Assembly (NCBI GenBank): GCA_048941265.1
Contig: JBHLNT010000080.1
Coordinates: forward strand, 1-17,399
Source of the DNA: Promethearchaeota archaeon
GTDB lineage: Archaea > Asgardarchaeota > Lokiarchaeia > Sigyniarchaeales > SOKP01
Direction of reading: 5' to 3'
Length of the DNA stretch: 17,399 nucleotides
Every line of letters starts with the position of its first letter. The stretch's first letter is position 1. Positions 160 through 17,399 of the stretch are shown one piece after another. The position numbers and the translations under genes are program-made. The notes under the pieces were generated by a model. It worked only from the letters and a program-made list of their open reading frames with translations, made no database searches and was not told the DNA's origin.

Positions 160-181
160 TGAAAATTTCATATTTACCAAC

Positions 182-191
182 TTTTTTTTTT
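182..191 (+). terminator. Oligo-T tract, possible archaeal-type terminator
   Basis: T10 run starting 23 bp after the TAA at 159. The AT-rich background limits specificity. Confidence 0.4.
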
Positions 192-236
192 ATTTATTAA
201 TTTTTTAATCTATAATTTTTAATAAGTTCATGTTTG

Positions 237-1301: not shown

Positions 1302-1338
1302 ATAAAAAAATGAAAAATAGCTGAGTAAATAAAAAAAA

Positions 1339-2121
1339 TTACTGAGATTCGGCTTTCTTTTGCGCTGTTAAAGCAGCTCCTAAAGCACCCATTAGTTGAG
1401 GATCAACTGGTAATTTCTTAGCCTGGACACCTAACTTTTTTTCTAGGAATGCCACAACTCCAATGTTTTTAGCTACTCCCCCAGTTATAGTTAAATCTTC
1501 TTCAAGTCCTACTCTATATACTAAAGACATAATCCTCGAAGCGATAGCATCATGTATTCCAGCTACTATATCTGGAACTTCAACTCCATCAGCCATTAAA
1601 CTTACAACCTCTGTTTCAGCGAACACGCTACATTGGGCTGTTATTTTAGCCTGATTTTTTGATTGAAGTGAAATTGGACCGAGTTCTTCAAGTTTTAACT
1701 CAAGTGTTCTGGCCATGACTTCTAAAAATCTGCCCGTTCCTGCAGCACATTTATCGTTCATTGCAAAATCAAGAATTTTGCCGTCTTTACTAACTTTTAT
1801 AACTTTACAATCTTGACCGCCCACATCAATTATGGTTCGAATTGATGGAATAAAAGAATGGGCTCCCTTGCCATGGCATGATAATTCAGAAATTTCTGAA
1901 TTAGCAAAAGGGATCTTCACCCTTCCATATCCGGTTCCGACAATATACTCTATTTCATCTAAAGTTAAATTAGCATTTTCAAGTGCTTCATCCATCGCAT
2001 TTTTCGCTGTTCTCTCGGGTTTAGGAGTTGTCGGAACGATGCTAGTTGATATGATTTCTCCATTCTTTAATATAACTGCTTTGCCGGTTAAAGAACCGAC
2101 ATCACATCCCGCCACAATCAT
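1339..2121 (-). CDS. ATP-dependent activator of 2-hydroxyacyl-CoA dehydratase (HgdC/HadI-like, BcrAD/BadFG ASKHA ATPase family)
   Basis: Motifs GCDVGSLTGKAV, TGYGR, ELSCHGKGA, IIDVGGQDCK, MNDKCAAGTGRFLE, CSVFAETE and TGGVAKN. Single 260-aa domain. A T8 tract follows the stop on the minus strand (1331-1338). Confidence 0.93.
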   Translation of the reverse strand: MIVAGCDVGSLTGKAVILKNGEIISTSIVPTTPKPERTAKNAMDEALENANLTLDEIEYIVGTGYGRVKIPFANSEISELSCHGKGAHSFIPSIRTIIDVGGQDCKVIKVSKDGKILDFAMNDKCAAGTGRFLEVMARTLELKLEELGPISLQSKNQAKITAQCSVFAETEVVSLMADGVEVPDIVAGIHDAIASRIMSLVYRVGLEEDLTITGGVAKNIGVVAFLEKKLGVQAKKLPVDPQLMGALGAALTAQKKAESQ

Positions 2122-2140
2122 AATTCTCTACAATTTATTT

Positions 2141-2148
2141 ATTTATAA
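2141..2148 (-). promoter_or_regulatory. Putative TATA box for the activator gene (near-leaderless transcript)
   Basis: Minus-strand TTATAAAT begins 27 bp upstream of the ATG at 2121, matching archaeal TATA spacing. Confidence 0.4.
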
Positions 2149-2242
2149 TAAGACTATTGTTTATTTCTTTATATCTTTTTATAATGGAAATGAGAAATAT
2201 TCTACAAATTTGTATTCAATTTGGATTCTCTTTATTGATTAA

Positions 2243-3562
2243 TCATAATACAACTTGAGTTAAAAACTCAGTAATCTTTGATCTGATCTCTTCCGCGGTT
2301 ACTTCTCTTGAGTCATATGGGTCACAGCCAAATACTAGAGAAGGAATTCCTAATTCTTCTCGAACCGCTTCAACAGCTATTCGAGTTATTGAATAGGCAT
2401 GTTTGCAAGCAAACTGCATGGGCATAATAACACAGTCAATTTTATAATCCTTCACATATTTTAGGACAAATTCTGTATAATATTCAGCAGGACCTCTACA
2501 GGTACCAATCATAGAGAAGTCTAATACTCCCATGGCTAGACTTTCATAGCACTTTTCGATTGTTGATACATCATGGGGCAAAACAGGATAATATCCTAAT
2601 ATGTCCATGATAACCACCGCTTGAAATGTTTTTTCTATCCACGGTAAGAGCTCCATATCAAAAAATACATGGGTATAAGGCCACGCAATTCTGATTTTTT
2701 CATCCGGTACTCCAGCTACTCCGTTTTTAACGTTTTCAGCCGCTTGATCACGAATCCATTTAGTTGTTTTTACTGCTTCAGGAGTTCCACTGGAAGTTGC
2801 CATAGTAGCAAAATTAAGATAACCTGTTATACTCGGCATGGGGCAGGGTACATTCTTCAAAAGTTCATTAAATTCAGCTATATATTCACGTGCCTCATTT
2901 GCCAATTTCATAGTTTGCTGGAATTTCTCCTCATCAAGTTTTTGATTTGTTTGTTTTTCTAACCAAGATACTAGCTCTTTGTTTTGTGTAACCATATAAT
3001 CCATGATTTTTTCGTCATAAAACTCATTTGATTGGTCATAAGCCCAGTATGGAATATCCATATTAAAACAAGGTACTTTAATTAATTGTTGAAAGACTTG
3101 ATAACTCATTGCTAAAGCATTACAGGGTGTTGAAGTAAAGAACATCATATCTGGGATAGGGGCAACCCCTTTCGTATAAGCGCCAACTATAGGCCTCTGA
3201 GCATTGCACAATGTTGGAGTGTCGCCATAACCCAGTTCATTTGTAATATCGATATAGGTTTCATTAATGTGAAAAGGGGCCAAAACAACACTAAAACTTT
3301 CTTGCATAATGGGAGCTAAGTTCATAGCAAAGAATAGCGCAGGTTCATAGTTGAATGGATACATAATAACGGGTTTTCCTTCCTTTCGTGCTTCTGGTAT
3401 TCTCACAAACATATTAAGAAACATTTCCATAAATGGATTAAATTCTTCTTCATTTTTAATCAAAGTAAGAATCGAATTATACATAGTCTTCCAAAGAGAT
3501 AAATCCTTTCCCCAACTTCCTCTTCCAAGCTTTCTATATTTATTGTATATTTCCTCGTCCAT
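2243..3562 (-). CDS. 2-hydroxyacyl-CoA dehydratase alpha-type subunit (HgdA/HadB/BcrB family), paralog A1
   Basis: Three candidate [4Fe-4S] ligands (TLCNAQR, TPCN, FACKH), Glu in MQE and EKIRIAW. ATG at 3562 lies 5 nt after GAGGTGA; the ORF track starts at GTG 3571, inside that SD. Confidence 0.88.
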   Translation of the reverse strand: MDEEIYNKYRKLGRGSWGKDLSLWKTMYNSILTLIKNEEEFNPFMEMFLNMFVRIPEARKEGKPVIMYPFNYEPALFFAMNLAPIMQESFSVVLAPFHINETYIDITNELGYGDTPTLCNAQRPIVGAYTKGVAPIPDMMFFTSTPCNALAMSYQVFQQLIKVPCFNMDIPYWAYDQSNEFYDEKIMDYMVTQNKELVSWLEKQTNQKLDEEKFQQTMKLANEAREYIAEFNELLKNVPCPMPSITGYLNFATMATSSGTPEAVKTTKWIRDQAAENVKNGVAGVPDEKIRIAWPYTHVFFDMELLPWIEKTFQAVVIMDILGYYPVLPHDVSTIEKCYESLAMGVLDFSMIGTCRGPAEYYTEFVLKYVKDYKIDCVIMPMQFACKHAYSITRIAVEAVREELGIPSLVFGCDPYDSREVTAEEIRSKITEFLTQVVL

Positions 3563-3598
3563 TCTTCTCACCTCTTTTTAAATATTTCCATAAAAGTA

Positions 3599-3632
3599 TG
3601 TACTCGAGCAGAGTACAAGCACATTTTATAAA
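3599..3632 (-). promoter_or_regulatory. Putative internal promoter for A1: TATA box plus palindromic operator
   Basis: Minus strand reads TAA(stop of A2)-AGTAAG-TTTATAAA (3632-3625), followed by the inverted repeat TGTACTC-N5-GAGTACA (3599-3617). Confidence 0.55.
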
Positions 3633-3638
3633 CTTACT

Positions 3639-4964
3639 TTACATTACTACTTGAGTTAAAAACTCTGAAATTCTCTCTCTTATAGTTTCAGATGAAACCT
3701 CTCTTGAATCATACGGATCACATCCAAATATTAAAGTGGGAATTCCCAATTGTTCTCGAACTGCTTCAGCAGCCACACGGGTTATGGCATAGGCATGCTT
3801 ACAAGCAAATTGCATTGGAATTATGACAGCATCAATCTTATATTCCTTGACATAATTTAATACAAAATCTACATAGAATTCAACAGGGCCTCTGCAAGTT
3901 CCGACCATAGAGAAATCTAAAGCTCCTAAAGCTAAGCTTTCATAGCATTTTTCGATTGTAGATACATCATGGGGCATAACAGGGTAATATCCTAATAAGT
4001 CCATGATTACAACTGCCTGAAATGTTTCTTCTATCCACGGTAAGAGATCCTGATCAAAAAATACATGGGTATAGGGCCAGGCAATTCTGATTTTTTCATC
4101 CGGTACTCCTGCCACCCCATTCTTAACATTTGCAGCTGCTTCATCGCGAATATATTTGGTGACTTTAACAGCATCGTGAGTTCCTCCCCGAGTTACCATG
4201 GTAATATAGTTTCCAAAACCCGTTATACTTGGCACAGGGCAGGGTACATTCTTTAGAAGTTCATTAAATTCTACTACATTTTCCCGTGCCTCATTTACCA
4301 ATCTCATAGTCTGTTGGAATTTCTCTGAATCTAACGTTTGGTTAGTTTGCTTTTCTATCCAAGAAATTAGGTCCTTAGTTTGTTGGACCATATATTCCAT
4401 CGTTCTCTCATCATAAAATTCATTAACTTTATCATAAGCCCAATATGGGATATCCAAATTGAAAGTTGGAACATCGATTAATTGCTGATATACTTGGTAA
4501 GTCATTGCAATAGCATTGCAGGGTGTAGAAGTAAAGAAAAGAAGGTTCGGAACAGGTGCGGCTCCTTGCATATGAGCACCGATTAAAGGTCTTTGAGCAT
4601 TGCATAATGTTGGTGTGTCACCATAGCCTATTTCATTTGTAATATCGATATACGGTTCATTAAAATGGAATGGGGCCAAACCTACACTAAATACCTCTTG
4701 CATCAGGGGAGCTAAATTCATGGCATAAAATACCTCCGGACCATAATTGAACGGATGCATTATAATGGGCCTGCCCTCTTTTCGGGCATTTGGTAATTCT
4801 AAAAACATATTTAGCATCATCTCAACGAAAGGAGTATAATCTTCTTCTTTAAATTGATTTAAAAAGCCCATATACATCGTTTTCCAAAGAGATAAATCCT
4901 TACCCCAACCACCTCTTCCCAATTTCTTATATTTCTGGAAAGTTTCTACGTCCAATAGTTTCAC
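3639..4964 (-). CDS. 2-hydroxyacyl-CoA dehydratase alpha-type subunit, paralog A2
   Basis: Same motifs as A1 (LCNAQR, PCN, ACKH). The GTG at 4964 overlaps the TGA of the beta gene (GTGA). Alternative start TTG at 4955, 5 nt after AGGTGA. Confidence 0.88.
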   Translation of the reverse strand: MKLLDVETFQKYKKLGRGGWGKDLSLWKTMYMGFLNQFKEEDYTPFVEMMLNMFLELPNARKEGRPIIMHPFNYGPEVFYAMNLAPLMQEVFSVGLAPFHFNEPYIDITNEIGYGDTPTLCNAQRPLIGAHMQGAAPVPNLLFFTSTPCNAIAMTYQVYQQLIDVPTFNLDIPYWAYDKVNEFYDERTMEYMVQQTKDLISWIEKQTNQTLDSEKFQQTMRLVNEARENVVEFNELLKNVPCPVPSITGFGNYITMVTRGGTHDAVKVTKYIRDEAAANVKNGVAGVPDEKIRIAWPYTHVFFDQDLLPWIEETFQAVVIMDLLGYYPVMPHDVSTIEKCYESLALGALDFSMVGTCRGPVEFYVDFVLNYVKEYKIDAVIIPMQFACKHAYAITRVAAEAVREQLGIPTLIFGCDPYDSREVSSETIRERISEFLTQVVM

Positions 4965-6088
4965 CTAGCTTCCAAAATTTCCATAAAAGTTTGGACTCGG
5001 GTTTTCATAGCTCCCGCTCCGCTCAACACGTATTCTCTTTCTAATTCAAGATATGGGATACCCTCTTCCTTTAATTTATTACGGAGTAAAAAAATTTCGG
5101 CCCACCAAAGAATACAGAATTTCATTCTTTGAAAAATAATCCCATCAACATTAAATTCTTTAATGAGCTTCATCATGAACTCTTCTCTTTCGGGATATTT
5201 CCCTGTCATACGAGGACAAGATATTTTTGAAAGGTATCGCTCTTCAATTGCATCAATAGGATTTTTATTTTCATCAATTAAATCCCAAAAATATCTCGTT
5301 CCAAGACATTGCGAGTCGGTTACAACTAATCCCCCTAGATCTTCTATGATTTTCATATAATCAGGTTCATCAAGCATACTTCCTATAATCATTATCCTTG
5401 CTCTATAATCAGATATGCCCTCTTTTTCTTTAAGCTCTTGAAGTTGTTGGGCCAAAAGGTCATTAAATTGATCTCTTGGCATGGATATTCCTGCAGAAAT
5501 AATATTTAATACTTCGGTCCCGGTAATAGGAGGATTATCGAGTTTTCTAAGTTCGTAGAGTTCTTTAAGTAGTGTTCGGGATTTATTATAAACTTTTATA
5601 GCATTTTTAAGCTTATCATCGGAAATAATAACGTCAAAATTCTTTTCTAAGTTTTCCTTAAATTTGGTAATTTCATGACCGAACCATTCATGTGTAGTTT
5701 CACTAACACAACCAGGAACTCCCATGATATAATGATAAGGAAAGGGAGCCTTGTATCTTATGTTGTCATAAAGACGTCGAATTTGGTCACAGCTATTGCA
5801 GGAAACTATACCGTCAAGAAAGTCATATTGATGTTGATTTGCTAACTCTAAACAACATCTGGTATAGCTACATGATGTTGGAGTCATATATGCATCACCC
5901 ATAGGAGTATCACCTGCGGCACACGTTCTAGCCCTCACTCTCACGGGTAAAATATCAGCAGCATAGATAATTTCTTCAGGGATATAGGTACAAAAATATC
6001 CCAAAACCTTTTTTCCCTCATTTTTCCAGCTTTCAATCCAAGGATTTGCAAGCGGAAGAGCTTGAGAGATTTTTTCCATAACAGTCAT
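4961..6088 (-). CDS. 2-hydroxyacyl-CoA dehydratase beta-type subunit (HgdB/HadC/BcrC family)
   Basis: Motifs GKKVLGYFCTYIPEEIIYAA, SCSY, NSCDQIRR, GGLVVTD..C.GTRYF, MKFC and KTRVQTFME. ATG at 6088 chosen; TTG at 6094 and a downstream ATG are alternatives. Confidence 0.9.
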   Translation of the reverse strand: MTVMEKISQALPLANPWIESWKNEGKKVLGYFCTYIPEEIIYAADILPVRVRARTCAAGDTPMGDAYMTPTSCSYTRCCLELANQHQYDFLDGIVSCNSCDQIRRLYDNIRYKAPFPYHYIMGVPGCVSETTHEWFGHEITKFKENLEKNFDVIISDDKLKNAIKVYNKSRTLLKELYELRKLDNPPITGTEVLNIISAGISMPRDQFNDLLAQQLQELKEKEGISDYRARIMIIGSMLDEPDYMKIIEDLGGLVVTDSQCLGTRYFWDLIDENKNPIDAIEERYLSKISCPRMTGKYPEREEFMMKLIKEFNVDGIIFQRMKFCILWWAEIFLLRNKLKEEGIPYLELEREYVLSGAGAMKTRVQTFMEILEAR

Positions 6089-6282
6089 ATACAATTCTCT
6101 TTTCTAATTTACGTATGAATCCAAATCATCTTCATATTTTAGAATTCATTGGACTCTTTTATGTTTGGAATATTAATAATTATTTATACCATTTGACTTT
6201 AAATAAATATCTATTATACTATTTTGGAAAAAATTCTTAAAAAGATAAAATAGATAGGTTGTTAGTTCAATATGAATTGGTA

Positions 6283-7608
6283 TTATAACACAACTTGAGT
6301 TAAAAATTCCTCAATTTTTGACCTAATTGTTTCTGAAGGTACATCCCTCGCGTCGTAAGGATCACAGCCAAATAATAGAGTTGGAATCCCCGTTTCTTCT
6401 CGAACTGCTTCCAAAGCGACTCTTGCTATGGAGAATGCGTGTTTACACGCAAATTGACATGGGAGAATCACACAATCTAACTTATACTCTTTAACGTAAT
6501 TTATGATATAATCTGTAAGATATTCAAGAGGTCCTCTACAGGTACTAATCATTGAATAGTCCAAAGTTCCCATAGCTAAGCTTTCATAACATTTTTCTTC
6601 TGTAGAAATATCGTGGGGTAAAACTTGATAATATCCTAATATATCCATAATAATAGAAGCTTTAAACTTCTGCTCTAACCATGGAAATAATTCTGCATCG
6701 AAGAAGATATGTGTATACGGCCATCCAATCCTGATTTTCTCATTAGGTATCCCAGCGATCCCATTTTTTACATTTTCCGCAGCTAGGTCACGCAAATATT
6801 TAGTACACTTTACTGCATCTTCAGTGCCTCCACGTAGCGTCATAATAAAAAAATTTAGACCTGTTCTCATGCTTTCTAAAGGACATGGCACTGTCTTTAG
6901 AAGTTCATTGAATTCTAAAATATATTCTCTTGCCTCATTTACCAATTTCAATGTTTTATGTAATTTTTCAAACTCCAGTTTTTGTTGAGTTTTCGTTTCC
7001 AGCCATTTTACTAAATCTTTTGTTTGATTAGCCATGTAATCAATTGTTTTTTCATCATAAAACTCACTGACTTGGTCGTACGCCCAATATGGGACGTCCA
7101 TCGAGAAGGTGGGAACTCCAGTTAAATTTTGAAATACTTGATAGGTCATAGCGAGAGAATTACAAGGTGTTGAGAGAAAGAATAAGTAGTCTGGCACTGG
7201 AGCTGCACCCTGTAAATAGGACCCGATTAATGGCCTTTGGGCATTACAAAGAGTAGGATTATCTCCATAACCTATTTGATTAGTAAAATCAAGATAGGGT
7301 TGATTGAGTTGAGCTGGAGCTAAGCCTACGCTAAAAACTTCCTGCATTAGCGGAATTAGATTCATAGCATAGAATAATTGGGGTTCATAGTTAAAAGGGT
7401 ACATAATAATAGGAGTATCATTACTCCGAGCTCGGGGAATGCTAAGGAAAACATCCAATAACATTTCTGCGATTGGTGTAAACTCTTCATCCTTCAAGTT
7501 ATTGATAGCCCCCATATATAACATTTTCCATAATCTAAGGTCTTTACCCCAGTTTCCCCTTCCAAGTTTTTTATATTTATTAAAAAGTTCAATATCCAGC
7601 TTTTTCAC
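6283..7608 (-). CDS. 2-hydroxyacyl-CoA dehydratase alpha-type subunit, paralog A3
   Basis: Same three Cys motifs and colinear with A1/A2. Start is GTG at 7608 or CTG at 7599 (5 nt after AGGTGA). Confidence 0.88.
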   Translation of the reverse strand: MKKLDIELFNKYKKLGRGNWGKDLRLWKMLYMGAINNLKDEEFTPIAEMLLDVFLSIPRARSNDTPIIMYPFNYEPQLFYAMNLIPLMQEVFSVGLAPAQLNQPYLDFTNQIGYGDNPTLCNAQRPLIGSYLQGAAPVPDYLFFLSTPCNSLAMTYQVFQNLTGVPTFSMDVPYWAYDQVSEFYDEKTIDYMANQTKDLVKWLETKTQQKLEFEKLHKTLKLVNEAREYILEFNELLKTVPCPLESMRTGLNFFIMTLRGGTEDAVKCTKYLRDLAAENVKNGIAGIPNEKIRIGWPYTHIFFDAELFPWLEQKFKASIIMDILGYYQVLPHDISTEEKCYESLAMGTLDYSMISTCRGPLEYLTDYIINYVKEYKLDCVILPCQFACKHAFSIARVALEAVREETGIPTLLFGCDPYDARDVPSETIRSKIEEFLTQVVL

Positions 7609-7696
7609 CTAAAACATATTAAGGATTGGATCTACTTAAAATCTTGAAGTTAAGTATCTATTGGGATTTATTTCCTTAAAAATCTGATGTTAATTT

Positions 7697-7728
7697 AAAA
7701 AAAATGGTTATAAGGATTTGAAGATCCT
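7697..7728 (-). terminator. Possible terminator after the relic gene end and paralog A4
   Basis: Minus strand has a short inverted repeat AGGAT-N6-ATCCT (7713-7728) followed by a T8 tract (7704-7697). Confidence 0.35.
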
Positions 7729-7743
7729 AGTTTATTCCTTATC

Positions 7744-7785
7744 TTACATTACAACTTGAGTTAGAAAGTCGGAAATTTTACCCTT
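7744..7785 (-). pseudogene. Relic 3' end of a further alpha-subunit paralog
   Basis: Minus strand AAG GGT AAA ATT TCC GAC TTT CTA ACT CAA GTT GTA ATG TAA = KGKISDFLTQVVM*. Compare the paralog C-termini RSKITEFLTQVVL, RERISEFLTQVVM, RSKIEEFLTQVVL and RGQISEFLTQIVL. It has no start of its own and is out of frame with A4. Confidence 0.85.
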
Positions 7786-7802
7786 TCTATTCCGAAATAA
7801 TT

Positions 7803-9137
7803 TTAGAGAACAATTTGAGTTAAAAATTCGGAGATTTGCCCCCTGATCGCTTCTGAAGTGACTTCTCGGGAATCATAAGAGTCACATCCAAAAATTAAGG
7901 TTGGTATTCCTATTTCTTCTTTTATAGCTTCCGAAGCTACCTGTGCCATGGCAAAAACATGTTTACAAGCAAAGTGTACGGGGAATATTACAGCATCTAT
8001 CTTATAATCTTTCATATAATTTACTAGGTAATCAATATAGTATTCTATTGGTCCTCTTAGCGTACCAACCATTGATGCATCCAACATTCCCTTAGCTAAA
8101 CTTTGAAAACAGTTATCAGTGGTAGATACATCATGGGGAAGTACCTTATAATGACCTAGAAGGTCCATTATGACTACAGCGTTATATGTCTGTTCCATCC
8201 AAGGAAGTAGTTCTTGATCGAAAAAAACGTGAGTATAAGGCCATGCAATTCTTATTTTTTCATTCGGGACACCAGCTATACCGTTTTTTACATTCTGAGC
8301 GGCAGTATCACGAAACCATTTAGTTGTATTGACTGCTTCAGTGCTTCCACCACGGGTCACCATAGTAAAAAAGCTTCCTAAAAATCCAGCTTGGCTTGGC
8401 ATCGGGCAGGGTACATTTTTTAGGAGTTCGTTGAATTCCAATACATTTTCCCGGGCTTGATTAACCATACCCATTGTGTGCATAAATCTTTCTTCATCAA
8501 ATTCATGCTTTGTCTTATTCTCTAACCATGCAATCAGATTTTTTGATTGATTAATAATATAGTCTATGGTTTTCTCATCAAAATACTCATTTTCTTGATT
8601 ATAAGCCCAATAGGGGATATCTACGTAAAAAGATGGGATATTCGCGAGATTTTGCATAACTTGGTAAGACATTGTGAGAGAATTGCAAGGTGCAGTTGAA
8701 TACACGAGATAATCAGGGATAGGTGCTGCACCCTGTAACATCAGCGAAACGAAAGGTCTCTGGGCATTACAAAGAGTAGGATTGTCACCGTATCCCACTT
8801 GTTTTGCATAATCAATATAAGGTTCATTTAAGTGAAAGGGTGCCAATCCAACACTAATTACTTCCTGCATCAACGGTGTCAAATTCATCGCAAAAATTAA
8901 TGCAGGTTCATAGTTAAAAGGATGCATAACAATAGGATTTTCTTCCTTTCGCGCTTTGGGAATACTTAAAAAAATATCCAAGAACATTTCAATTACAGGA
9001 TTAAAATCTTGTTCTTTTGAAGCGTTGAGGAAAGCGTTATACATGGTCTTCCATATTTTTAAATCTTTCCCCCAACTTCCTCGGCCCTTTTTCTTATATT
9101 CATCAAATAATTCTTTATCCAACCTTTTCAACTCCAT
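7803..9137 (-). CDS. 2-hydroxyacyl-CoA dehydratase alpha-type subunit, paralog A4
   Basis: LCNAQR, APCN and FACKH motifs; colinear with A1-A3. Start is ATG at 9137 or TTG at 9122 (5 nt after GGAGTTGA). Confidence 0.88.
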   Translation of the reverse strand: MELKRLDKELFDEYKKKGRGSWGKDLKIWKTMYNAFLNASKEQDFNPVIEMFLDIFLSIPKARKEENPIVMHPFNYEPALIFAMNLTPLMQEVISVGLAPFHLNEPYIDYAKQVGYGDNPTLCNAQRPFVSLMLQGAAPIPDYLVYSTAPCNSLTMSYQVMQNLANIPSFYVDIPYWAYNQENEYFDEKTIDYIINQSKNLIAWLENKTKHEFDEERFMHTMGMVNQARENVLEFNELLKNVPCPMPSQAGFLGSFFTMVTRGGSTEAVNTTKWFRDTAAQNVKNGIAGVPNEKIRIAWPYTHVFFDQELLPWMEQTYNAVVIMDLLGHYKVLPHDVSTTDNCFQSLAKGMLDASMVGTLRGPIEYYIDYLVNYMKDYKIDAVIFPVHFACKHVFAMAQVASEAIKEEIGIPTLIFGCDSYDSREVTSEAIRGQISEFLTQIVL

Positions 9138-9332
9138 TTAAACCGAATAATAACTATTTAGGCTTTCAAATTTAAAAAGCTATCTATGATTAGATATTAA
9201 AGATTTTTAGAAGCTCATAATATCTTGTTTTATATAGAAAAAATAAAATAGAGATCGTTAATTTATAAAGAAACATTATACTGATCAACAAAGAAACTTA
9301 CATAAAAAGTATATTAAATAAAAGTGAAAAAA

Positions 9333-10115
9333 ATGGATTGGGGAATGAATAATCGATTATCGAGGATAATCAAGCCTAAATCTGGAAAATGTGTAATGTT
9401 AGCTATTGATCATGGATATTTTGGAAATATTCCTGGGCAATTAAAATGTTTTGGAGATTTAAATCCATTATTTCAATATGCAGATGCGCTAATGCTAACA
9501 CGAGGTATGTTAAGAAGCTGTGTTTCTCCCGGCTTAGATATACCAATTGTACTTAGAGTTTCAGCAGGAGCTAGCATGCTGAAAGAACTCTCAAATGAAG
9601 AGATTAACGTCACGATAGAGGATGCGATTAGACTAAATGTATCTGCTATAACATGTTCCATTTTTGTAGGGGGAGAATATGAAAAGCAGAGTTTAATGAA
9701 TTTATCTAAATTAGTCAACTGGGGACAAGAATATGGTATTCCTACTTTAGCGGTTACGGCCGTTGGAAGAGAAATGGTAAGAGATGATCGCTATCTTGGA
9801 ATGGCTAGTCGTATGGCAGCTGAAATGGGAGCAACATTCGTTAAAACTTATTATTGCGAAAACTTTGAAAACGTTACTAGTATTTGTCCAGTACCAATAG
9901 TGATTGCTGGAGGGAAAAAAGTAGAGGAAAGAGATGCCTTACAGATGGCAAAGGATGCGGTTGATAAAGGCGCCGTAGGTGTCGATATGGGGCGGAATAT
10001 CTTTCAAAGCGACAGTCCTATTGGGATGATACAAGCCGTCAGAGCAATAGTTCATGAAAATGCAACTGTGGATGAGGCTTTTGAGATTTATCGAAATGGT
10101 CCAAAAGGACTATAA
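9333..10115 (+). CDS. lsrF: LsrF-like 3-hydroxy-5-phosphonooxypentane-2,4-dione thiolase (DhnA-type class I aldolase fold)
   Basis: MDWGM.NRLSRI..PK.GK.VMLA.DHGYF, ELSNE, R.AAEMGA...KTYY (Schiff-base Lys), CPVPIVIAGGKK and GVDMGRNIFQSD closely follow E. coli LsrF as I recall it. ATG at 9333 lies 5 nt after AGTGA; the ORF track uses GTG at 9324. Confidence 0.9.
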   Translation: MDWGMNNRLSRIIKPKSGKCVMLAIDHGYFGNIPGQLKCFGDLNPLFQYADALMLTRGMLRSCVSPGLDIPIVLRVSAGASMLKELSNEEINVTIEDAIRLNVSAITCSIFVGGEYEKQSLMNLSKLVNWGQEYGIPTLAVTAVGREMVRDDRYLGMASRMAAEMGATFVKTYYCENFENVTSICPVPIVIAGGKKVEERDALQMAKDAVDKGAVGVDMGRNIFQSDSPIGMIQAVRAIVHENATVDEAFEIYRNGPKGL

Positions 10116-10157
10116 TTTTAACTAAATTAAATTTTGTTTAAGTTAATTTATTAAATC

Positions 10158-10172
10158 TTTTTTTATTTTTTT
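10158..10172 (+). terminator. Double oligo-T tract, possible terminator of lsrF
   Basis: TTTTTTT-A-TTTTTTT starting about 43 bp after the lsrF stop. Confidence 0.35.
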
Positions 10173-10211
10173 CAACAAATATCAATTATTTTCAGCCAGT
10201 ATAGTATTTTT

Positions 10212-11171
10212 ATGTATATACCTAAAATAGATAATCTTCAAATTCAAAAAGTTACTGAAGATGTTTTACTTTTACATCAAATTAAACCACCTTCTGTATT
10301 TTCTTGTTGCGATGGGCTTCTTATATTACCCAAAGAAGGTAGAAATCAAAAAGCTATCATTCTTGATGCCAATATTGAACCGAATTTAGTCGAGGAAATT
10401 AATTACCTATATGGGCCAATTACGGATTATGTTTGTACTCATGGGCATATGGATCATATCACACATGTTCATGCATGGGAACAAGTCGGAGCAAAAATAC
10501 ATGCACCTGCTCCTGAAGCAAATTATTTAGTTGATTTACATAATTTTTACGAAGGATATGGATTCAATGAATCTTTGGGATACTCTACTATTGAAAAGTT
10601 CGGAAGATTAAATAAATTTCAAAGTTGTAAGAGTATAAGTAATTTTGAGCCCGGTGATACTATTAAATTTGAACAATTTGAAATAGAAACCATTCCATTT
10701 ACAGGACATTCAAAATCTCACATAGGAATTTTATTGAAGAGAGAAAAAATCCTTCATGTTAGCTGTTTAGGTTTTGATCAACCAAAACCAGGAGTGGATG
10801 GATTTGGTCCTTGGTATGGTTTTAAAGAATGTTCAATATCACAATATTTAAAAGATATTGATATAGCAGAAATGATTTATCGTAATTTAGAATATTTAAC
10901 ATCTAGTCATTCTTACATTGCTAAAAATCCAGATATAAGACCTTTTGTATATATGAGAAAAAAGATCAAAGACAACCAGAAAAAGGTTGATATTGGATTA
11001 ATGAAAATAAAATTTACTCCGAATTTTGAAGAGAAGGTAAAAAAATTACTTAAATTAGACCTTTTCTTCCCTAAAAAAAGAATGAGAGGATTTTTGCGAG
11101 AAATTTATACACATTGGGAATCTTGGATTATAACAAAGCACCTACAAAAAAGTAAATTATTAAAATACTAA
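10212..11171 (+). CDS. Metallo-beta-lactamase-fold metallohydrolase
   Basis: IILDA, THGHMDH (HxHxDH, residues 77-82), GHS (H166), FGPWYG and SSH (H233). Confidence 0.85.
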   Translation: MYIPKIDNLQIQKVTEDVLLLHQIKPPSVFSCCDGLLILPKEGRNQKAIILDANIEPNLVEEINYLYGPITDYVCTHGHMDHITHVHAWEQVGAKIHAPAPEANYLVDLHNFYEGYGFNESLGYSTIEKFGRLNKFQSCKSISNFEPGDTIKFEQFEIETIPFTGHSKSHIGILLKREKILHVSCLGFDQPKPGVDGFGPWYGFKECSISQYLKDIDIAEMIYRNLEYLTSSHSYIAKNPDIRPFVYMRKKIKDNQKKVDIGLMKIKFTPNFEEKVKKLLKLDLFFPKKRMRGFLREIYTHWESWIITKHLQKSKLLKY

Positions 11172-11182
11172 TCTCTTTAATT

Positions 11183-12232
11183 TTACTCCTTATTTGGCTC
11201 AAGAATTACTTTTAGTGATTTATCAGCTTCACAGACAGTTTTGAAAGCCTCCCCAACTTTATTGAGAGGAAATCGATGAGAAATCAAATCAACAACGTTA
11301 ACTTTTTTGGATTTGATTCTGTTATAAGCCTCATCTAAATCTTGAGGCGCTGCTCCATACGATGTCATGATAGTGACTTCATTTCTCCAATAGTCATTAA
11401 TAGGGATTTCAATATTAACCCCCGGTTTTGGTACCGCGAAAAAAATAATAGTACAGCCCGGACCAGCACATTGAATGGCTTGTTTCGCCGCAGATAGAGC
11501 CCCCGTACATACAATAATGCAGTCGGGAGTCTTGTTATTATTCAATTTTTTTACTATTGATAAAACATCTTCACCCACCTTTATCGTTGCTATTGCTCCG
11601 TATTTTCTTGCCATATTTAGTCTATATTCACTAATATCAGTTGTAATGATTTTTTCTACTCCTTTTGCTTTTGCGAGTATAAGATGCAACAAACCTGAAA
11701 CTCCGCTTCCTAATATAAGAATTGTCTGCCCTTTTTTAATGTCTGCCAATCTTTGAGCTCGACAAACGCAGCCTAATGGCTCTATAAAGACTCCCTCTTC
11801 ATAAGAGACTTCGTCGTCCAGGACATATACACCTTTTTTTTCAATATTAATATTTGGAACTCTGAGATATTCAGCAAATCCCCCCGGATCGTAATTAGTA
11901 TTATGAAGTAAATTGCATGCAGTATGGTGACCAAGCTGGCAATAATGACATTCAAAACAAGGAACATGGTGGGAAACAAACACTCTATCTCCCACTTTAA
12001 GATTTTTTACATTCTCACCTAATTCAACAATATCACCCGTAATTTCATGACCTAAGACCAAGTTATCTACTCCCAATTTTTTCATTTTAGCGATTCGATA
12101 ATATTCCAAAATATCAGAACCACAGATTCCTGATTTTTTCACTTTAACTAAAAATTCTCCAGATCCTATCTCTGGTTTAGGTATCTGATCTTCTATAACT
12201 TTTTTGTTATTATAATATCTTGCGATTTTCAT
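11183..12232 (-). CDS. Zn-dependent medium-chain alcohol/polyol dehydrogenase (sorbitol/L-iditol dehydrogenase-like)
   Basis: GICGSD, GHE..G...E.G..V, structural Zn site CFECHYCQLGHHTAC, EPLGC, Rossmann GSGVSG and the Asp of TDIS (suggests NAD preference). Substrate unknown. Confidence 0.9.
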   Translation of the reverse strand: MKIARYYNNKKVIEDQIPKPEIGSGEFLVKVKKSGICGSDILEYYRIAKMKKLGVDNLVLGHEITGDIVELGENVKNLKVGDRVFVSHHVPCFECHYCQLGHHTACNLLHNTNYDPGGFAEYLRVPNINIEKKGVYVLDDEVSYEEGVFIEPLGCVCRAQRLADIKKGQTILILGSGVSGLLHLILAKAKGVEKIITTDISEYRLNMARKYGAIATIKVGEDVLSIVKKLNNNKTPDCIIVCTGALSAAKQAIQCAGPGCTIIFFAVPKPGVNIEIPINDYWRNEVTIMTSYGAAPQDLDEAYNRIKSKKVNVVDLISHRFPLNKVGEAFKTVCEADKSLKVILEPNKE

Positions 12233-12252
12233 AACAGGATTTAAATTATTAC

Positions 12253-12262
12253 TTTTATAAAA
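12253..12262 (-). promoter_or_regulatory. Putative TATA box for the dehydrogenase gene (leaderless-type spacing)
   Basis: TTTTATAAAA; the minus-strand TTTATAAA starts 29 bp before the ATG at 12232 and no SD precedes that ATG. Confidence 0.45.
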
Positions 12263-12389
12263 TTAAAGATGGAATTAAATTTAATATCATTTATTTATGA
12301 TTTTTTAGATAAATTTTTATTAATTTCTTTTTTATTTAGTATAATTGCCACTCTATCCTTGTTTTTAATAATAATAATGACTATTAATC

Positions 12390-12410
12390 ATATCTATGAC
12401 TCATAGATAT
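12390..12410. promoter_or_regulatory. Perfect 21-bp palindrome, candidate PadR operator
   Basis: ATATCTATGA-C-TCATAGATAT (10-bp arms) in the divergent dehydrogenase/padR intergenic region, directly beside a TATA-like TTTTTATAT (12412-12420). Confidence 0.7.
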
Positions 12411-12556
12411 CTTTTTATATTATTCTTATTTTTACATTTTAACCATAATTTACTAAAACTTTTTTTAATTAAAATTGGTCTACAGATAGATTTTAATTGA
12501 AAAAAGACTAAATATTAGAAAAAAATTTACTAAAAAAACAAAAAAGTTTTGAAAAT

Positions 12557-13195
12557 ATGACGGAAAAAGACAACGATAATAAAATAAAGGATATCGTTGA
12601 TTCTTTCGAAGTTGCAATGAAAAAAGGATTCATGAGTGGATTAATTTTATTGGTACTGCAGAATGAACCGTGTCATGGTTATAAGATTTTGAAAGAAATT
12701 GAAAAACGCACTTTAGGAGTTTGGCAGCCAAGTTCATCAAACATTTATCCATTATTAGAATCATTAAGCGAAAAAGGTCTTATTGAATGTGTTGAGATGG
12801 ATGGCGCTGGACGCCAAAAGAAAGTATATGCGATTACCTCCAAAGGAGAAAATGCTATAAAAATCTTAATCCAAAAACATTCCATGATGGTCGATTCAAT
12901 AAGATCAATAATCTTATCCACGTTAGGGATTACAGATGTGCATGATCCGTCATTTTTAGAAGATTTGGAGAAATTAATTTCTTATCCAGGAATGGAATTG
13001 ATAATGAAAGATTCCATTGATTCCAAAGTGGAAATCTTAAAATATAACAAAGAATTGATAAAACAACGAATCAAAATTATGAACAAGAATCTCCAAATCA
13101 TCGAAAATTTTCTTTCAAAACTCGAAAGTGAGAAAAAAAATGAAAATATTAATCAAAAACCACAACAAATTGCTAGCCATCAATCACAAAAATAA
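12557..13195 (+). CDS. PadR-family transcriptional regulator
   Basis: Winged-helix pattern KKGFMSGLILLVLQNEPCHGYKILKEI...PSSSNIYPLLESLSEKGLI...GRQKKVYAITSKG, plus a helical/coiled-coil-like C-terminus. Confidence 0.9.
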   Translation: MTEKDNDNKIKDIVDSFEVAMKKGFMSGLILLVLQNEPCHGYKILKEIEKRTLGVWQPSSSNIYPLLESLSEKGLIECVEMDGAGRQKKVYAITSKGENAIKILIQKHSMMVDSIRSIILSTLGITDVHDPSFLEDLEKLISYPGMELIMKDSIDSKVEILKYNKELIKQRIKIMNKNLQIIENFLSKLESEKKNENINQKPQQIASHQSQK

Positions 13196-13210
13196 TTCGG
13201 AGATACTAAA

Positions 13211-16200
13211 ATGGGAGTTATATTAAAGTTAGCAATAAGGAATATGAAACGGCGTAAAGCAAGATATATTCTTACTTCTCTTACCCTTGTAATAGGAGTT
13301 GCGTTATTTGGTGGTATTTTAATTGCAAACGATTCCTTTCAAGTAACATTTGTAAATGATATTGATAGACGTATGGGTACAGCTGATATTCTTCTTCGTG
13401 ATACTGAAAATGCGGACGGTTGGTTTAATCCCAACGATTTAAAAGATGTTAAAGATTTGGATCACGTTACAGATATTGCATATCGAATTTCAGGATTTAA
13501 TATACAAGTAACTGCCGTAGAAGGAGGCTCACTAGACGACAATAGTACTTCATCAGCCATATATGGAATTGATCCTGATTCAAAAGGTGAGCAACATTTA
13601 GGTGGTCCTCCTACAATATTAGATTCTAAGGTCGATGGAAATAGTTTGGAGGATTTGCTAAAGGATGCTTCTTCCGATGAAATCGTAATAACAGAATCAT
13701 TAAAAATAAAATTAGGTAAGGATTTTGAAGCTGGGGATACAATTTATATTTTCCCAATTGATTATGAAAAAACCTTTCCAACAGGCGAACAAGAATTAGT
13801 CAAAACGGATTCAAGTTTATGGCCAAAATATAAAGTACTTGCTATAATTCGAGATAATGGTGAAGCACGTGATTTTGATCCTGACACACCTGAACAATTC
13901 TCATCGCCTTCTCGAGGGCCTTGTATTTTTACAACCCTTGGTACTGCACACGATCTTGTTGATGGACTAAACGATTATGATGATAAAGTCACACTTGCTG
14001 CGATTGGAGTAGATGATCTCAATTTAATTAAGGATGTTATTAAGGAAATTGACCATGATCTTGACAATGACAAATGGGTTGCTGCTGATCTTAAATCTGA
14101 TAGCGTTGATCAAATTAATAGTTCTATGACAATGCTGAGGACAATGTTTTTGATGTTTGCTCTCGTAGCTTTAATATTATCGATTATTCTTATTATGAAC
14201 ATTTTCAATATAATCAAGGAAGAACAGGAATATGAAACGGGAATGCTTCAAGCAATTGGATCGTCGAAATCTGAGACATTTAAGATGTTTTTATATCAAG
14301 GAATAATAATGGGGATAATAGGAGCAATAATAGGAACAATTGGTTCTTATTTCATGTCATATTTCATTTTTTGGTTGACAATAGAGTCTCTAAGAAATCT
14401 TCCAGGAGGAGTCGGTGAATACTTTCAAGGCTTTGAATTTGGTATTGTATTATATCCACAAACTATAATTGTTACGTTAGCAGTAGGAATTATCTCTTGC
14501 ATATTAGCTTCTATATATCCAAGCTGGAAAGCGAGTCGTAAGCCAATAATAGAGTGTTTAAATCCCCTTGCTCAAAAAGCCGAACGCGAAAAAAAGCATT
14601 TTAAAAGAAAAATATTAGTAGGTATAATGGCATTGTTGCTTATAGCAATTGGGTCATACCTTTTGTTTACTCTTTCCCGTTTTGGACCCGAAAGATCCGA
14701 AGAAGCTTCTACCATATCAATGATTGCGCCAACCATGATCCTATTGGGTATTATTGGGCTTATGAATCTCTTTGTAAGTCCGCTTACAAGAGTGTTCGTT
14801 AAAATTTTCTCCCCATACCTTAAACATACAACATTATTAACTGGAAAAAATGTTTTAAGACATAGAAAGAGAACAGTTCTCACATTTTCAATGATATCGT
14901 TAACGACGAGTTATCTTATCGGTCTGAGTGTTTTTTTGGGTTCCATAGAAGCTGGAGTACAAACAACAGTAAATGATGTAATGGGTTGCGATGTACGAAT
15001 CATTTGTTATGGTACACCATTAGAATTTGGAAACAAATTAGAAGATCGGAAAGGTGTTGATGAGGTTATGGGAGTAACCTACGAAAATATTCAAATATGG
15101 GATGGGCATAAATGGGTCGGACATCGTCAATTAGAAAAAGAATGGGATGTTTCTATCACTGCGAATGTTGTAGAGCCAAAAATGATGAAAAAGCATATGA
15201 ATGAAACCGTTGTTTTAGATCCTAGCAGTAAGCCTTTTGAAAAGCTGATAACTGACTTATCCGATGAGAATACTGTAATGATTCCTAAAGAAACTGCTGA
15301 CAAGTTTGATTTAAAAAAAGGAGATACAGTATTGGTTCGATTTTCCCTCGGAGTTGATTATCCTTCGGCAACAGCACTTAGAGATCATGATGTAGACAAT
15401 GCTGTTGAAATTACATGCAATGTTAAATTAAAAGTTATCGCAATCGTTGATGATGTTCAAGGGTTTGGTTTTTCAAACCTTATAGGACAAGATGTTGAAA
15501 GCTATAGTATTTTTATTTCATGGAACACATGGGATTCTATATCTCTTAATAATTTGAATGGTGGTGGAACCGATCTTATGTTTAGACATAAGTCTCAATC
15601 AGGAGAGCCCGGTATTGATAATTTTCAATCTAAATGGTTCAATTTCTCTGAAGTTATCGGTGCTATAGAAAATGTCTCTAATATCGACTATTACACTACA
15701 AGGATGGATTATTTCAGTCCTACTTATGGGGCTGAAGTACTTTTCAATCCTTTTGATCCTGCGATAAATTTTGAATCTTCAGTTGTAGGGATAAGAACTA
15801 ATTCAAGTGGAAAATTAGTTGATGATTCATATTTTGGTCAAAACACACTAATTGACAAGTCTGATGAGTATTCAGGTTCAACTATGGAACAACTACTAAA
15901 TAATACTAAAATGGTATGTGTAGTGGATGAAAGTTATGCTAATCTTATGAAAGAGAGTGATTCATCATTTGGTATCGGTTCGAATATTACTATTTTCCCT
16001 CAAGAATTTCAATCTATGCAATATCAGATTTTTGCAAATAGTCTCTATACAAGTGTTACAACCACAAATGGTTCTAGTACAGGTCTAGTAGATTTCTTAA
16101 CTCTTCCCGCACCAATAGAACCGAATAACATGACTTTTACTAGCAATAAAACATCAATGGAAGTCATTATAGATTTCGATATGACATATTTTATGACACA

Positions 16201-17399
16201 TTATATAAATCCACATAATATTTCTATTACTTCTTTTCTCAATGCCTCAGTGGACAACCTTGAATTAGATGTATTAAATTATTATACTGGAAAGTACGAT
16301 AAGTTAGGTGATCTTAATAATACTGACTATTTACCCTACGATTTTGAATTTAATCAAGAAATGCCAGCATTTTCTTATATAAATTTATCGAATTTCATAA
16401 TGAGATTAAGAATAAAAGGCTATAATTCAACTTATGGATCAGACTATAGATTAGACCTTGATTATTTGAACCTTTTAGTAGACAATTCAACATATACTTT
16501 ATATGCACCTTCATGGCCTAAATATCAAGTGATAGGGATAATCAAAGACCCATCATTAGCCAAATCTGAAAGAGCTTTTTGGAGTTCTGCATCTGAGAGA
16601 TATTACGATGTTGAGCAAACAACCAATACTGTGTATATCAATTATGAGAACGCTAGAAATTATGTATATCTTATGAATCGAGGTTCATTACCTAATGGTA
16701 CTTACGATAAAATTACTTCAGTTCTCATCCATAGTAATAGTATTGAAGATATAAATAGCGTACATACCCAATTAAAACAAGAGCTTAATAATGTTGAAGC
16801 AAATGTTTGGACTGTTCTTGATTTAAAAACTCAAACTTTAGAAAGCAGAAGATACGCCTTTGATTGGTATATCTGGATTAAAAATGGTTATGACGACGAG
16901 CAAGTTTTGGAAGATTTAACTCAATACATACAAGATCAAGGATATCTTGTTTTATTTGGATTTACCAGATCATTTGTCGAAGATATGTTCACTGGTATGA
17001 TAAATCTCATAACAATGATCACTACTGGAGTCTTAACCTTTGCTATAATTATCGCTATGATTGGATTAGCCTTGCATAGCCTTCTTTCTACAATGTCTCG
17101 GAGAAGAGAAATCGGAATGCTTAGATCAATTGGACTAAATAAAAAAGGGGTAATTAGGACTGTTTCTGGAGAAACGATCATCATATCACTACTTGGTGCT
17201 GCTATTGGCATTCTAGCAGGGCTTTTACAGGGTTTTCTTATGGTATCTGCTGTTCCTGACACGGGACTACTTACAGTAACATTTACAATACCCTGGCTTA
17301 CAATTGGTATATTAGTGGGGGTCACCATTGCAACTGCGATTATTAGTTCTCGATATCCTTCCAGATGGGCAGCAAATATAAACATCATTGATGCAGTTA
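13211..17399 (+). CDS. Very large FtsX/MacB-type ABC transporter permease, 3' end just outside the window
   Basis: Manual translation from ATG 13211 is open for 1396 codons to the window end. It begins MGVILKLAIRNMKRRKARYILTSLTLVIGVALF, has a first FtsX block (EYETGMLQAIGSSK...YPSWKASR), a second start-like segment (KNVLRHRKRTVLTFSMISL) and a second FtsX block (RRREIGMLRSIGLNK...YPSRWAANINIIDAV). It starts 15 bp after the padR stop. Missed by the ORF track because it has no stop in the window. Confidence 0.93.
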   Translation, partial: MGVILKLAIRNMKRRKARYILTSLTLVIGVALFGGILIANDSFQVTFVNDIDRRMGTADILLRDTENADGWFNPNDLKDVKDLDHVTDIAYRISGFNIQVTAVEGGSLDDNSTSSAIYGIDPDSKGEQHLGGPPTILDSKVDGNSLEDLLKDASSDEIVITESLKIKLGKDFEAGDTIYIFPIDYEKTFPTGEQELVKTDSSLWPKYKVLAIIRDNGEARDFDPDTPEQFSSPSRGPCIFTTLGTAHDLVDGLNDYDDKVTLAAIGVDDLNLIKDVIKEIDHDLDNDKWVAADLKSDSVDQINSSMTMLRTMFLMFALVALILSIILIMNIFNIIKEEQEYETGMLQAIGSSKSETFKMFLYQGIIMGIIGAIIGTIGSYFMSYFIFWLTIESLRNLPGGVGEYFQGFEFGIVLYPQTIIVTLAVGIISCILASIYPSWKASRKPIIECLNPLAQKAEREKKHFKRKILVGIMALLLIAIGSYLLFTLSRFGPERSEEASTISMIAPTMILLGIIGLMNLFVSPLTRVFVKIFSPYLKHTTLLTGKNVLRHRKRTVLTFSMISLTTSYLIGLSVFLGSIEAGVQTTVNDVMGCDVRIICYGTPLEFGNKLEDRKGVDEVMGVTYENIQIWDGHKWVGHRQLEKEWDVSITANVVEPKMMKKHMNETVVLDPSSKPFEKLITDLSDENTVMIPKETADKFDLKKGDTVLVRFSLGVDYPSATALRDHDVDNAVEITCNVKLKVIAIVDDVQGFGFSNLIGQDVESYSIFISWNTWDSISLNNLNGGGTDLMFRHKSQSGEPGIDNFQSKWFNFSEVIGAIENVSNIDYYTTRMDYFSPTYGAEVLFNPFDPAINFESSVVGIRTNSSGKLVDDSYFGQNTLIDKSDEYSGSTMEQLLNNTKMVCVVDESYANLMKESDSSFGIGSNITIFPQEFQSMQYQIFANSLYTSVTTTNGSSTGLVDFLTLPAPIEPNNMTFTSNKTSMEVIIDFDMTYFMTHYINPHNISITSFLNASVDNLELDVLNYYTGKYDKLGDLNNTDYLPYDFEFNQEMPAFSYINLSNFIMRLRIKGYNSTYGSDYRLDLDYLNLLVDNSTYTLYAPSWPKYQVIGIIKDPSLAKSERAFWSSASERYYDVEQTTNTVYINYENARNYVYLMNRGSLPNGTYDKITSVLIHSNSIEDINSVHTQLKQELNNVEANVWTVLDLKTQTLESRRYAFDWYIWIKNGYDDEQVLEDLTQYIQDQGYLVLFGFTRSFVEDMFTGMINLITMITTGVLTFAIIIAMIGLALHSLLSTMSRRREIGMLRSIGLNKKGVIRTVSGETIIISLLGAAIGILAGLLQGFLMVSAVPDTGLLTVTFTIPWLTIGILVGVTIATAIISSRYPSRWAANINIIDAV

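Follow-up and report, generated by a model that had tools for sequence, protein, structure and literature searches.

Predicted three-level nesting of ectodomains in a MacB/FtsX-type permease of Asgard archaea

Introduction

The window analyzed here, a stretch of 17,399 nucleotides (nt; 33% G+C) from a Promethearchaeota archaeon (assembly GCA_048941265.1, contig JBHLNT010000080.1, positions 1 to 17,399), ends in the following gene:

13211..17398, + strand: fused, duplicated MacB/FtsX permease, type VII among the ATP-binding cassette (ABC) systems (open reading frame, ORF; Pfam FtsX twice, MacB_PCD)

Type VII systems work mechanically outside the membrane, and it is their extracytoplasmic domains (ECDs, or ectodomains) that determine this work. 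In a 2018 review, the fused forms listed have one or two ectodomains only (PMC5985334). The preliminary description of the permease placed a third ectodomain (ECD3), homologous to the first (ECD1), inside the second (ECD2). The locus raises the question of whether ECD3 is a relative of ECD1 that interrupts ECD2 or a domain that follows it in tandem, and of what a protein so built might do. The structural models support a nest of three levels, in which ECD2 encloses ECD3, and ECD3 encloses a β-sandwich resembling carbohydrate-binding modules (CBMs) in a loop of its Sabre part.

Results

Domain layout of the permease

The ORF comprises 1396 codons within the window and is still open at its 3' end, the assembly break falling inside the gene. 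The last 76 permease codons recur at 100% identity on a second contig from the assembly, C6 (G000:C6), which supplies the residues RTR and the stop, for a full length of 1399 aa. The ends of the two contigs share 228 identical bases (window 17171-17398, G000:C6:3899-4126), and the contigs are therefore adjacent.

Two stretches of the protein matched Pfam FtsX (PF02687; E 4.9e-32), the first at residues 315-446 and the second, together with the NCBIfam matches, at about 1262-1393, while MacB_PCD was found on ECD1 only (residues 20-181, E 3e-8). Ten transmembrane (TM) helices were predicted from hydropathy: TM1 (18-44), TM2-TM4 (304-440), two linking helices between the FtsX units (464-493 and 499-531, from hydropathy only), TM7 (561-580) and TM8-TM10 (1262-1382). 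The hydrophobic segments flanking ECD1 lie at 18-44 and 304-339. With its ectodomains placed after TM1 and TM7, the protein has the two units, two linking helices and two ectodomains of YbbP, for which a fused 10-helix layout with ectodomains between helices 1-2 and 7-8 has been reported (PMC5985334, PMC12646458). It also has the 4-TM FtsX unit and the extracytoplasmic Porter domain between the first two helices that characterize type VII systems. A Porter subdomain consists of two β-α-β motifs that flank the contiguous Sabre subdomain (PMC5985334). The architecture given in the preliminary description stood, although the linking helices, and the whole Asgard family to which this one permease belongs, had been missed. 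The segments of the protein are as follows:

13343..14125, + strand: ECD1, ordinary MacB-type extracytoplasmic domain, residues 45-305, between TM1 and TM2 (Pfam MacB_PCD)
14126..14983, + strand: first FtsX unit (TM2-TM4), linking pair of TM helices (about 464-531), TM7 and stalk (552-591) (hydropathy, Pfam FtsX, helix at model residues 8-47)
14984..15556, + strand: ECD2N, residues 592-782, first Porter β-α-β and Sabre part of ECD2 (hhalign to ECD1, model A, outer VIA range)
15557..16852, + strand: ECD3, residues 783-1214, predicted complete MacB-type domain inside ECD2 (hhalign, fold of ECD3 alone, VIA)
16013..16486, + strand: innermost β-sandwich, residues 935-1092, CBM-like, predicted in the Sabre part of ECD3 (both models, VIA)
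16853..16966, + strand: ECD2C, residues 1215-1252, predicted second Porter β-α-β, completing ECD2 (model A; ECD3-less relatives)
16967..17398, + strand: stalk, then second FtsX unit (TM8-TM10), truncated at the window end (model A helices, Pfam FtsX, NCBIfam)

Relationship of ECD3 to ECD1

The landmark strings quoted in the preliminary description were all present at their places in the translation of 13211-17398 (+ strand), with GTADILLR at residue 56 (nt 13376), MGCDVRI at 591 (nt 14981), GGTDLMFR at 785 (nt 15563), WTVLDLK at 1200-1206 and FDWYIWIKNGYDDEQVLEDL beginning at 1216 (nt 16856). A single-sequence BLASTP comparison of ECD1 with residues 561-1260 aligned the C-terminal halves (ECD1 204-300 with 1102-1211, E 3e-6). 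A family alignment was then used, comprising 63 proteins of at least 1190 aa including the query, with shorter fragments excluded. Comparison of its slices with hhalign matched ECD1 56-301 to residues 785-1212 over 239 columns (probability 98.3%, E 1.7e-14), with each of the named landmark pairs aligned and with a single gap, in ECD1, where about 160 residues have no counterpart. The reversed ECD1 profile gave an E of 0.21 against ECD3, and the homology of the two domains was thus borne out.

Similarity between ECD1 and the first part of ECD2 was far weaker (hhalign E 4.4e-5, probability 69%, to 6.7e-4). With the ECD3 profile, the ectodomains of two further duplicated permeases from the same genome showed no similarity (E 0.1-0.3), whereas ECD1 taken from one family member was matched (E 6.8e-6), indicating that ECD3 is specifically ECD1-like, beyond the general similarity within the class. 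Judged from these sequence comparisons, ECD3 probably arose by copying of an ECD1-like segment.

Position of ECD3 within ECD2

The arrangement was modeled with AlphaFold2 for residues 545-1396 from a 58-row alignment (model A; pLDDT 85.7, pTM 0.72). After the TM7/stalk helix, model A has a β-α-β unit followed by an α/β region to residue 778, then at 789-1204 a second full set of the same elements, broken by an all-β block. Two consecutive β-α-β units lie at the C-terminal end. The first (1170-1204) closes ECD3, and the second forms ECD2C, with a strand at 1215-1223, a helix at 1229-1242 and a strand at 1247-1252 that runs straight into the TM8 stalk helix. The total of four β-α-β units is the number needed for two Porter subdomains.

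Isolated ectodomains of solved structure aligned to model A over two ranges, one inside the other. An outer range, from ECD2N to ECD2C, was obtained with the LolE domain 5udf_D (Z 15.5, 193 residues aligned, protein 580-1256), YknZ 5f9q (Z 14.6, 168 aligned, 593-1252) and MacB 9qgy_N (Z 13.3, 183 aligned, 583-1251), and an inner range with MacB 3ftj (Z 14.4, 209 aligned, 773-1218), 5lj8_B (Z 12.2, 188 aligned, 788-1205) and 5c59_A (Z 11.7, 177 aligned, 787-1205), all from VIA. Modeled by itself, ECD3 (783-1215; model B) reached a pLDDT of 91.8 and a pTM of 0.88. Model B matched LolE 9xro_E across the whole length of ECD3 (Z 15.7, 187 aligned), as well as MacB 3ftj (Z 14.5, 200/214 aligned), 5udf_D (Z 14.2, 191/203) and YknZ 5f9q (Z 13.4, 180/187).

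A HMMER scan with residues 585-1262 against 1.84 billion representatives returned 20 proteins at E up to 1e-3, and the best scores of the same residues in the ESM Atlas (0.88-0.89) were under the useful level. Three relatives have no ECD3. In P0085 (983 aa, full length), where the junction reads ...YDIYVSWTTFEEIVSENLPDGITFLQSFTLMDWFIWVEKG..., ECD2N is joined to ECD2C via about a dozen residues. The 90% cluster of P0085 has a second member, P0097 (985 aa), whose source and contig are different. P0088 (719 aa, 3 contigs) has neither ECD1 nor ECD3, both lost in frame, and keeps ECD2 and all TM units. The linkers that join ECD2N and ECD2C in these relatives are about 12-20 residues long. Across the junction, ECD2 of P0085 matched positions 1-204 of the 207 of the Pfam MacB_PCD profile (E 3.2e-5).

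Several observations weigh against the nested reading. Pfam failed to recognize ECD3 or ECD2N in the single sequence, and in searches with the sub-regions ECD3, ECD2C and the sandwich found no family at E up to 10, with chance-level matches only for ECD2N. The MacB_PCD score of P0085 ECD2 (24.8 bits) is under the 27-bit gathering cut-off. The VIA ranges give the first and last aligned residues only, and ECD2C alone (50 aa) had no detectable similarity in sequence to the C-terminal portions of either ECD1 or ECD3 (profile E 0.05-0.08). The last two points would suit a tandem arrangement, with a truncated ECD2 ending at about 782 and residues 783-1262 forming one larger domain with an extra β-α-β unit. 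Such an arrangement is nevertheless very improbable, given that the ECD3-less relatives retain the ECD2N-ECD2C fusion that matches nearly the full MacB_PCD profile, that ECD3 without ECD2C is predicted to fold alone and covers most of 3ftj, and that the 193 residues aligned to 5udf_D, within model range 36-712, are more than ECD2N has. The models, the two VIA ranges and the ECD3-less relatives together support a discontinuous ECD2 as originally proposed, with ECD3 nested between its Sabre part and its last β-α-β unit.

Because the metagenome-type contig ends within the permease gene, one might suspect an artefact, be it a chimeric contig or a fusion of genes. This explanation is hardly credible, as the same domain order recurs in 64 family proteins (1201-1438 aa) from numerous assemblies and sources, and ECD3 was matched in 46 other genomes of the phylum, mostly in stop-free frames of about 1230-1430 aa. 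The junctions between ECD2N and ECD3 and those of the sandwich are spanned by DNA contigs, those from two runs (which may be source samples) covering 14900-16593 and 14900-16729. The overall architecture of the permease as a nested, fused protein is regarded as highly probable.

The innermost β-sandwich

While the nested ECD3 was upheld, the earlier reading with three ectodomains had missed a fourth domain inside ECD3. Residues of about 935-1092, corresponding to the gap in the ECD1/ECD3 alignment, were all-β in models A and B. They are inserted between the strands GSNITIFP and KYQVIGIIKD, whose counterparts in ECD1 are joined by a short loop. The predicted fold is a β-sandwich like that of CBM29, and in VIA the segment matched CBM29 1wcu (Z 12.2-12.4, root-mean-square deviation (rmsd) 2.5-2.6, 125/149 residues aligned), many other β-sandwich CBMs (Z 9-11) and the baseplate of phage phi812 (9eui_D, Z 14.2-14.3), with 7-14% identity to these structures. 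The region 16025-16500 had no Pfam match.

The sandwich was absent from 8 of the 64 family rows; these proteins, of 1201-1237 aa, skip query residues of about 932-1100. At least six changes of sandwich presence are required on the family tree described below. In hhalign, the sandwich profile also matched residues 202-333 of P0093 (E 1e-20), a CD36-family protein (PF01130, Pfam E 1.1e-84), and was not found by profile comparison in three other CD36-like proteins of related genomes. Its variable presence in the permeases and its insertion in P0093 suggest a shuffled module, and the sandwich thus appears to be a mobile surface module.

This Asgard family was itself found to encode CD36-family proteins, in the window's own genome at G000:C171:6999-9242 (locus L030) and on G000:C153. 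Frames about 780-905 aa long that match the CD36 body of P0093 (E <1e-90) occurred in about two dozen of 135 f1 genomes, the window's own among them. A literature search combining CD36 with Asgard archaea returned nothing on topic, as judged by titles. These proteins are possibly a case of a eukaryote-type lipid-tunnel protein in Asgard archaea.

Distribution and evolution of the family

A word-indexed search yielded 77 proteins. Organism labels were available for 21, of which 19 were Asgard (Promethearchaeota, Lokiarchaeota, Hodarchaeota, Thorarchaeota and Hermodarchaeota) and two, both partial proteins, Neomarinimicrobiota. ECD3 was matched at E up to 1e-5 in 47 of 400 genomes of the window's phylum, including 10 of the 90 high-quality genomes. 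The matches fell in families f1 (42/134), f3 (2/14), f16 (1/22) and f18 (1/12), with none elsewhere in that survey. The permease family is nearly confined to Asgard archaea. Several genomes of genus g11 (G206, G216, G198, G220, G181 and G183) encode two family members, the long form plus one that lacks the sandwich and has about 1230-1260 aa.

Of 67 family rows, 64 have ECD3, and the three forms without it raise the question of gain or loss. A tree was built from 69 rows, namely the 64 family proteins, the three ECD3-less forms and two same-genome paralogues as outgroup, over 976 columns with ECD3 removed (quick IQ-TREE search, LG+G4); the outgroup branches were long. The ECD3-less forms lay inside a six-row clade with ECD3-bearing proteins at 100% support, and their linkers still align to the end of ECD3, both of which favor secondary loss. 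Holding the ECD3-less rows with the outgroup, as a single gain of ECD3 would require, was 37.9 log-likelihood units worse, with a p-AU of 0.0526 in the approximately unbiased (AU) test for a group named post hoc. On these sequence data, secondary loss of ECD3 is likely. P0088 stands on a long branch and has an unusual composition. Its joint loss of ECD1 and ECD3 may mean either that the two domains work together or that this copy is decaying.

Conservation and glycosylation sequons

Among the family rows, mean identity to the query was highest in the TM units (61-71%), which had 0.0-0.1 N-X-S/T sequons per 100 aa. ECD1 (46.8% identity) and ECD2N (41.6%) each had 1.4 sequons per 100 aa. The first part of ECD3 (ECD3a) was the best conserved ectodomain segment (53.9%; 3.8 per 100 aa), the second part (ECD3b) was at 43.6% with 1.9 per 100 aa, and the β-sandwich combined the lowest identity (34.4%) with 5.8 sequons per 100 aa (minimum 4.0). 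In the query itself, 15 of the 19 sequons lie within ECD3, nine of them within the sandwich. This pattern would fit nested domains that face outward.

The conserved four-gene module

Directly upstream of the permease lies the first gene of the module:

12557..13195, + strand: PadR-family transcriptional regulator, 212 aa (Pfam PadR, E 3e-19)

Directly 3' of the permease, contig C6 carries two ABC ATPase genes (276 and 260 aa; Pfam ABC_tran E 1e-31 and 3e-32), followed at the end of the module by a convergent decarboxylase-like gene. The ATPases share 48% identity, and their alignment shows in both a Walker A, a signature, a Walker B-Glu and an H-loop. The order PadR - permease - ATPase1 - ATPase2 was kept in all six related loci with upstream DNA, and both ATPases lay downstream of the permease in seven of seven, whereas outside the four module genes the flanks consist of varied metabolic genes.

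The PadR operator consensus ATGT-N8-ACAT had no match in the window. A perfect 10+10 palindrome, ATATCTATGA-C-TCATAGATAT, was noted at 12390-12410, 168 bp upstream of the PadR start. A script search found no comparable palindrome 5' of PadR in six related loci, one of which (L021) has two unrelated palindromes. Elsewhere in the window, five paralogous genes for the 2-hydroxyglutaryl-CoA dehydratase D-component (HGD-D) stand in a row at 2243-9137 (- strand), adjoined by a gene for a BcrAD/BadFG-type activator ATPase at 1339-2121 (- strand).

Top Foldseek/VIA matches of the permease were LolCDE, Spr0694-0695, MacB, YtrEF, HrtBA and YbbAP (Z 16-23). In a sequence search of the PDB with the family profile, only the FtsX TM part was matched (YtrF, MacB, LolF and LolC). 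Membership of named families was rejected on curated cut-offs, for ADOP (TIGR03434, the best NCBIfam match; E 2.1e-21, 75.8 bits against 622.3), for LolC/LolE (TIGR02212; 58.3 bits against 362.45) and for MacB (NF007826; 52.7 bits against 966). The gene probably encodes the membrane component of a four-gene Asgard type VII (MacB/FtsX-type) ABC system made up of PadR, a 10-TM permease and two different ATPases. Taken jointly with the mechanism and job proposed below, this reading is given somewhat better than even chances.

Discussion

Proposed mechanism and function

By analogy with characterized systems, the two catalytically complete ATPases would form a heterodimer that closes on ATP binding and pushes the coupling helices; the stalk helices would zip together, and ECD1 and ECD2 would move. 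The work done would be mechanotransmission, the mechanism described for type VII systems (PMC5985334, PMC12646458), rather than transport across the membrane, and for this permease such a mechanism is probable. Two adjacent chain crossings connect ECD3 to ECD2 where the Sabre and Porter parts of the latter meet, and ECD3 should therefore be carried by ECD2 as an extra lobe, an extended, distal and probably glycosylated arm. The optional sandwich at its tip might bind or shield a surface glycan or a partner, and both this role and the substrate are speculative.

PadR regulators commonly control detoxification or efflux genes. Combined with the ability of several type VII systems to pull lipid-like molecules from the outer leaflet (PMC12646458), this leads to a tentative best guess for the job of the system, by analogy, namely that under the control of PadR it extracts or expels lipid-like, amphiphilic compounds at the cell surface.

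A number of points weigh against this picture of a regulated, working arm. The link from PadR to detoxification is general background on that family. The resemblance of the sandwich to CBMs is one of fold only, at 7-10% identity, and the core function must be able to proceed without a domain that 8 of 64 relatives lack. No conserved secreted, membrane or extracellular partner gene adjoins the module in the seven loci. Sequon density is weak evidence for glycosylation, because an Asgard glycoproteome study reported only one highly glycosylated protein, a solute-binding protein (PMC11284389).

ECD3 and the sandwich might instead be passive, glycosylated and serving as spacer or shield, against viruses or proteases for instance, while ECD1 and ECD2 alone do the ATP-driven work. 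This would account for the sandwich being both the least conserved and the most sequon-rich segment, for its at least six changes of presence on the tree and for the existence of natural ECD3-less forms. A mere shield is hard to reconcile with ECD3a as the best conserved ectodomain segment and with the retention of ECD3 in nearly all family rows, and one of the ECD3-less forms, P0088, with its long branch, odd composition and lost ECD1, looks like decay; passivity is considered unlikely.

No more probable is a system that activates or positions an extracellular partner encoded elsewhere, as FtsEX does with EnvC/PcsB and YbbAP with TesA, with ECD3 as a docking platform. A hairpin hook of LolC binds LolA (PMC11671585), and the sandwich occupies a comparable Sabre loop of ECD3, the equivalence of the LolC/LolE hook and the insertion site being a rough proportional estimate only. 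The lack of a conserved adjoining partner gene in the seven loci speaks against this reading.

The working arm that extracts lipid-like compounds could be extended to a bolder and quite improbable reading, drawn from the shared sandwich of the permease and a CD36-family (lipid-tunnel) protein and from the occurrence of CD36 genes in the same Asgard family. The nested arm would then be an ATP-powered extracellular manipulator, in which stalk motion is relayed via ECD2 to ECD3, the sandwich grips a glycan on a syntrophic partner or on the cell's own surface, and lipid-like molecules are extracted or handed over at cell-cell contacts. If true, it would imply that in the archaea most closely related to eukaryotes one targeting module is shared by proteins of surface lipid traffic.

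Novelty and implications

A literature search, mostly judged from listings, found no description of the family or of a periplasmic domain-within-domain layout. Three-level nesting of ectodomains would be new for this transporter class, and its function is so far an inference. The family indicates that a Porter/Sabre domain can be inserted as a unit, the Porter part bringing its two ends together. One whole ectodomain appears to have been copied into the other, and a further binding-type module then added, where known layouts have one or two ectodomains. Full-length proteins and forms that lack the sandwich, ECD3, or ECD1 together with ECD3 make up a natural deletion series for the relay of motion. 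For Asgard biology, the permease represents a large, conserved and probably exposed surface machine on cells for which the glycoproteome study describes no detectable S-layer protein (PMC11284389).

Comparison with known systems

The innermost domain (935-1092) shares its fold with CBM29, other β-sandwich CBMs and phi812 baseplate domains (Z 11.5-14.3, rmsd 2.5-3.0, 121-146 residues aligned), a resemblance of fold only in view of the low identity and the lack of a Pfam match noted above. ADOP is likewise a duplicated FtsX permease, but its profile has 803 positions and two ectodomains. LolCDE, MacB and Spr0694-0695, which matched best in structure (Z 16-23 with the protein's second half, 13-16 with ECD3 alone), have the same 4-TM FtsX fold with a stalk-borne Porter/Sabre domain, yet they are not fused and have no nested domain, and sequence similarity to them is confined to the TM part.

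In overall layout the permease resembles YbbP of the E. coli YbbAP-TesA system (PDB 9ge6), a single chain with two FtsX-type units, two linking TM helices, and ectodomains between TM1-2 and TM7-8, each composed of Porter and Sabre (PMC12646458, PMC5985334). The structural match to 9ge6 had a Z of 16.5 over 362 aligned residues. YbbP has about 800 aa and two simple ectodomains, whereas ECD2 of the Asgard protein is predicted to hold a further full domain and a sandwich. The YbbP system has one ATPase gene, and the Asgard module has two different ones. Also unlike YbbP, the Asgard permease is preceded by a PadR gene, and its host is an archaeon.

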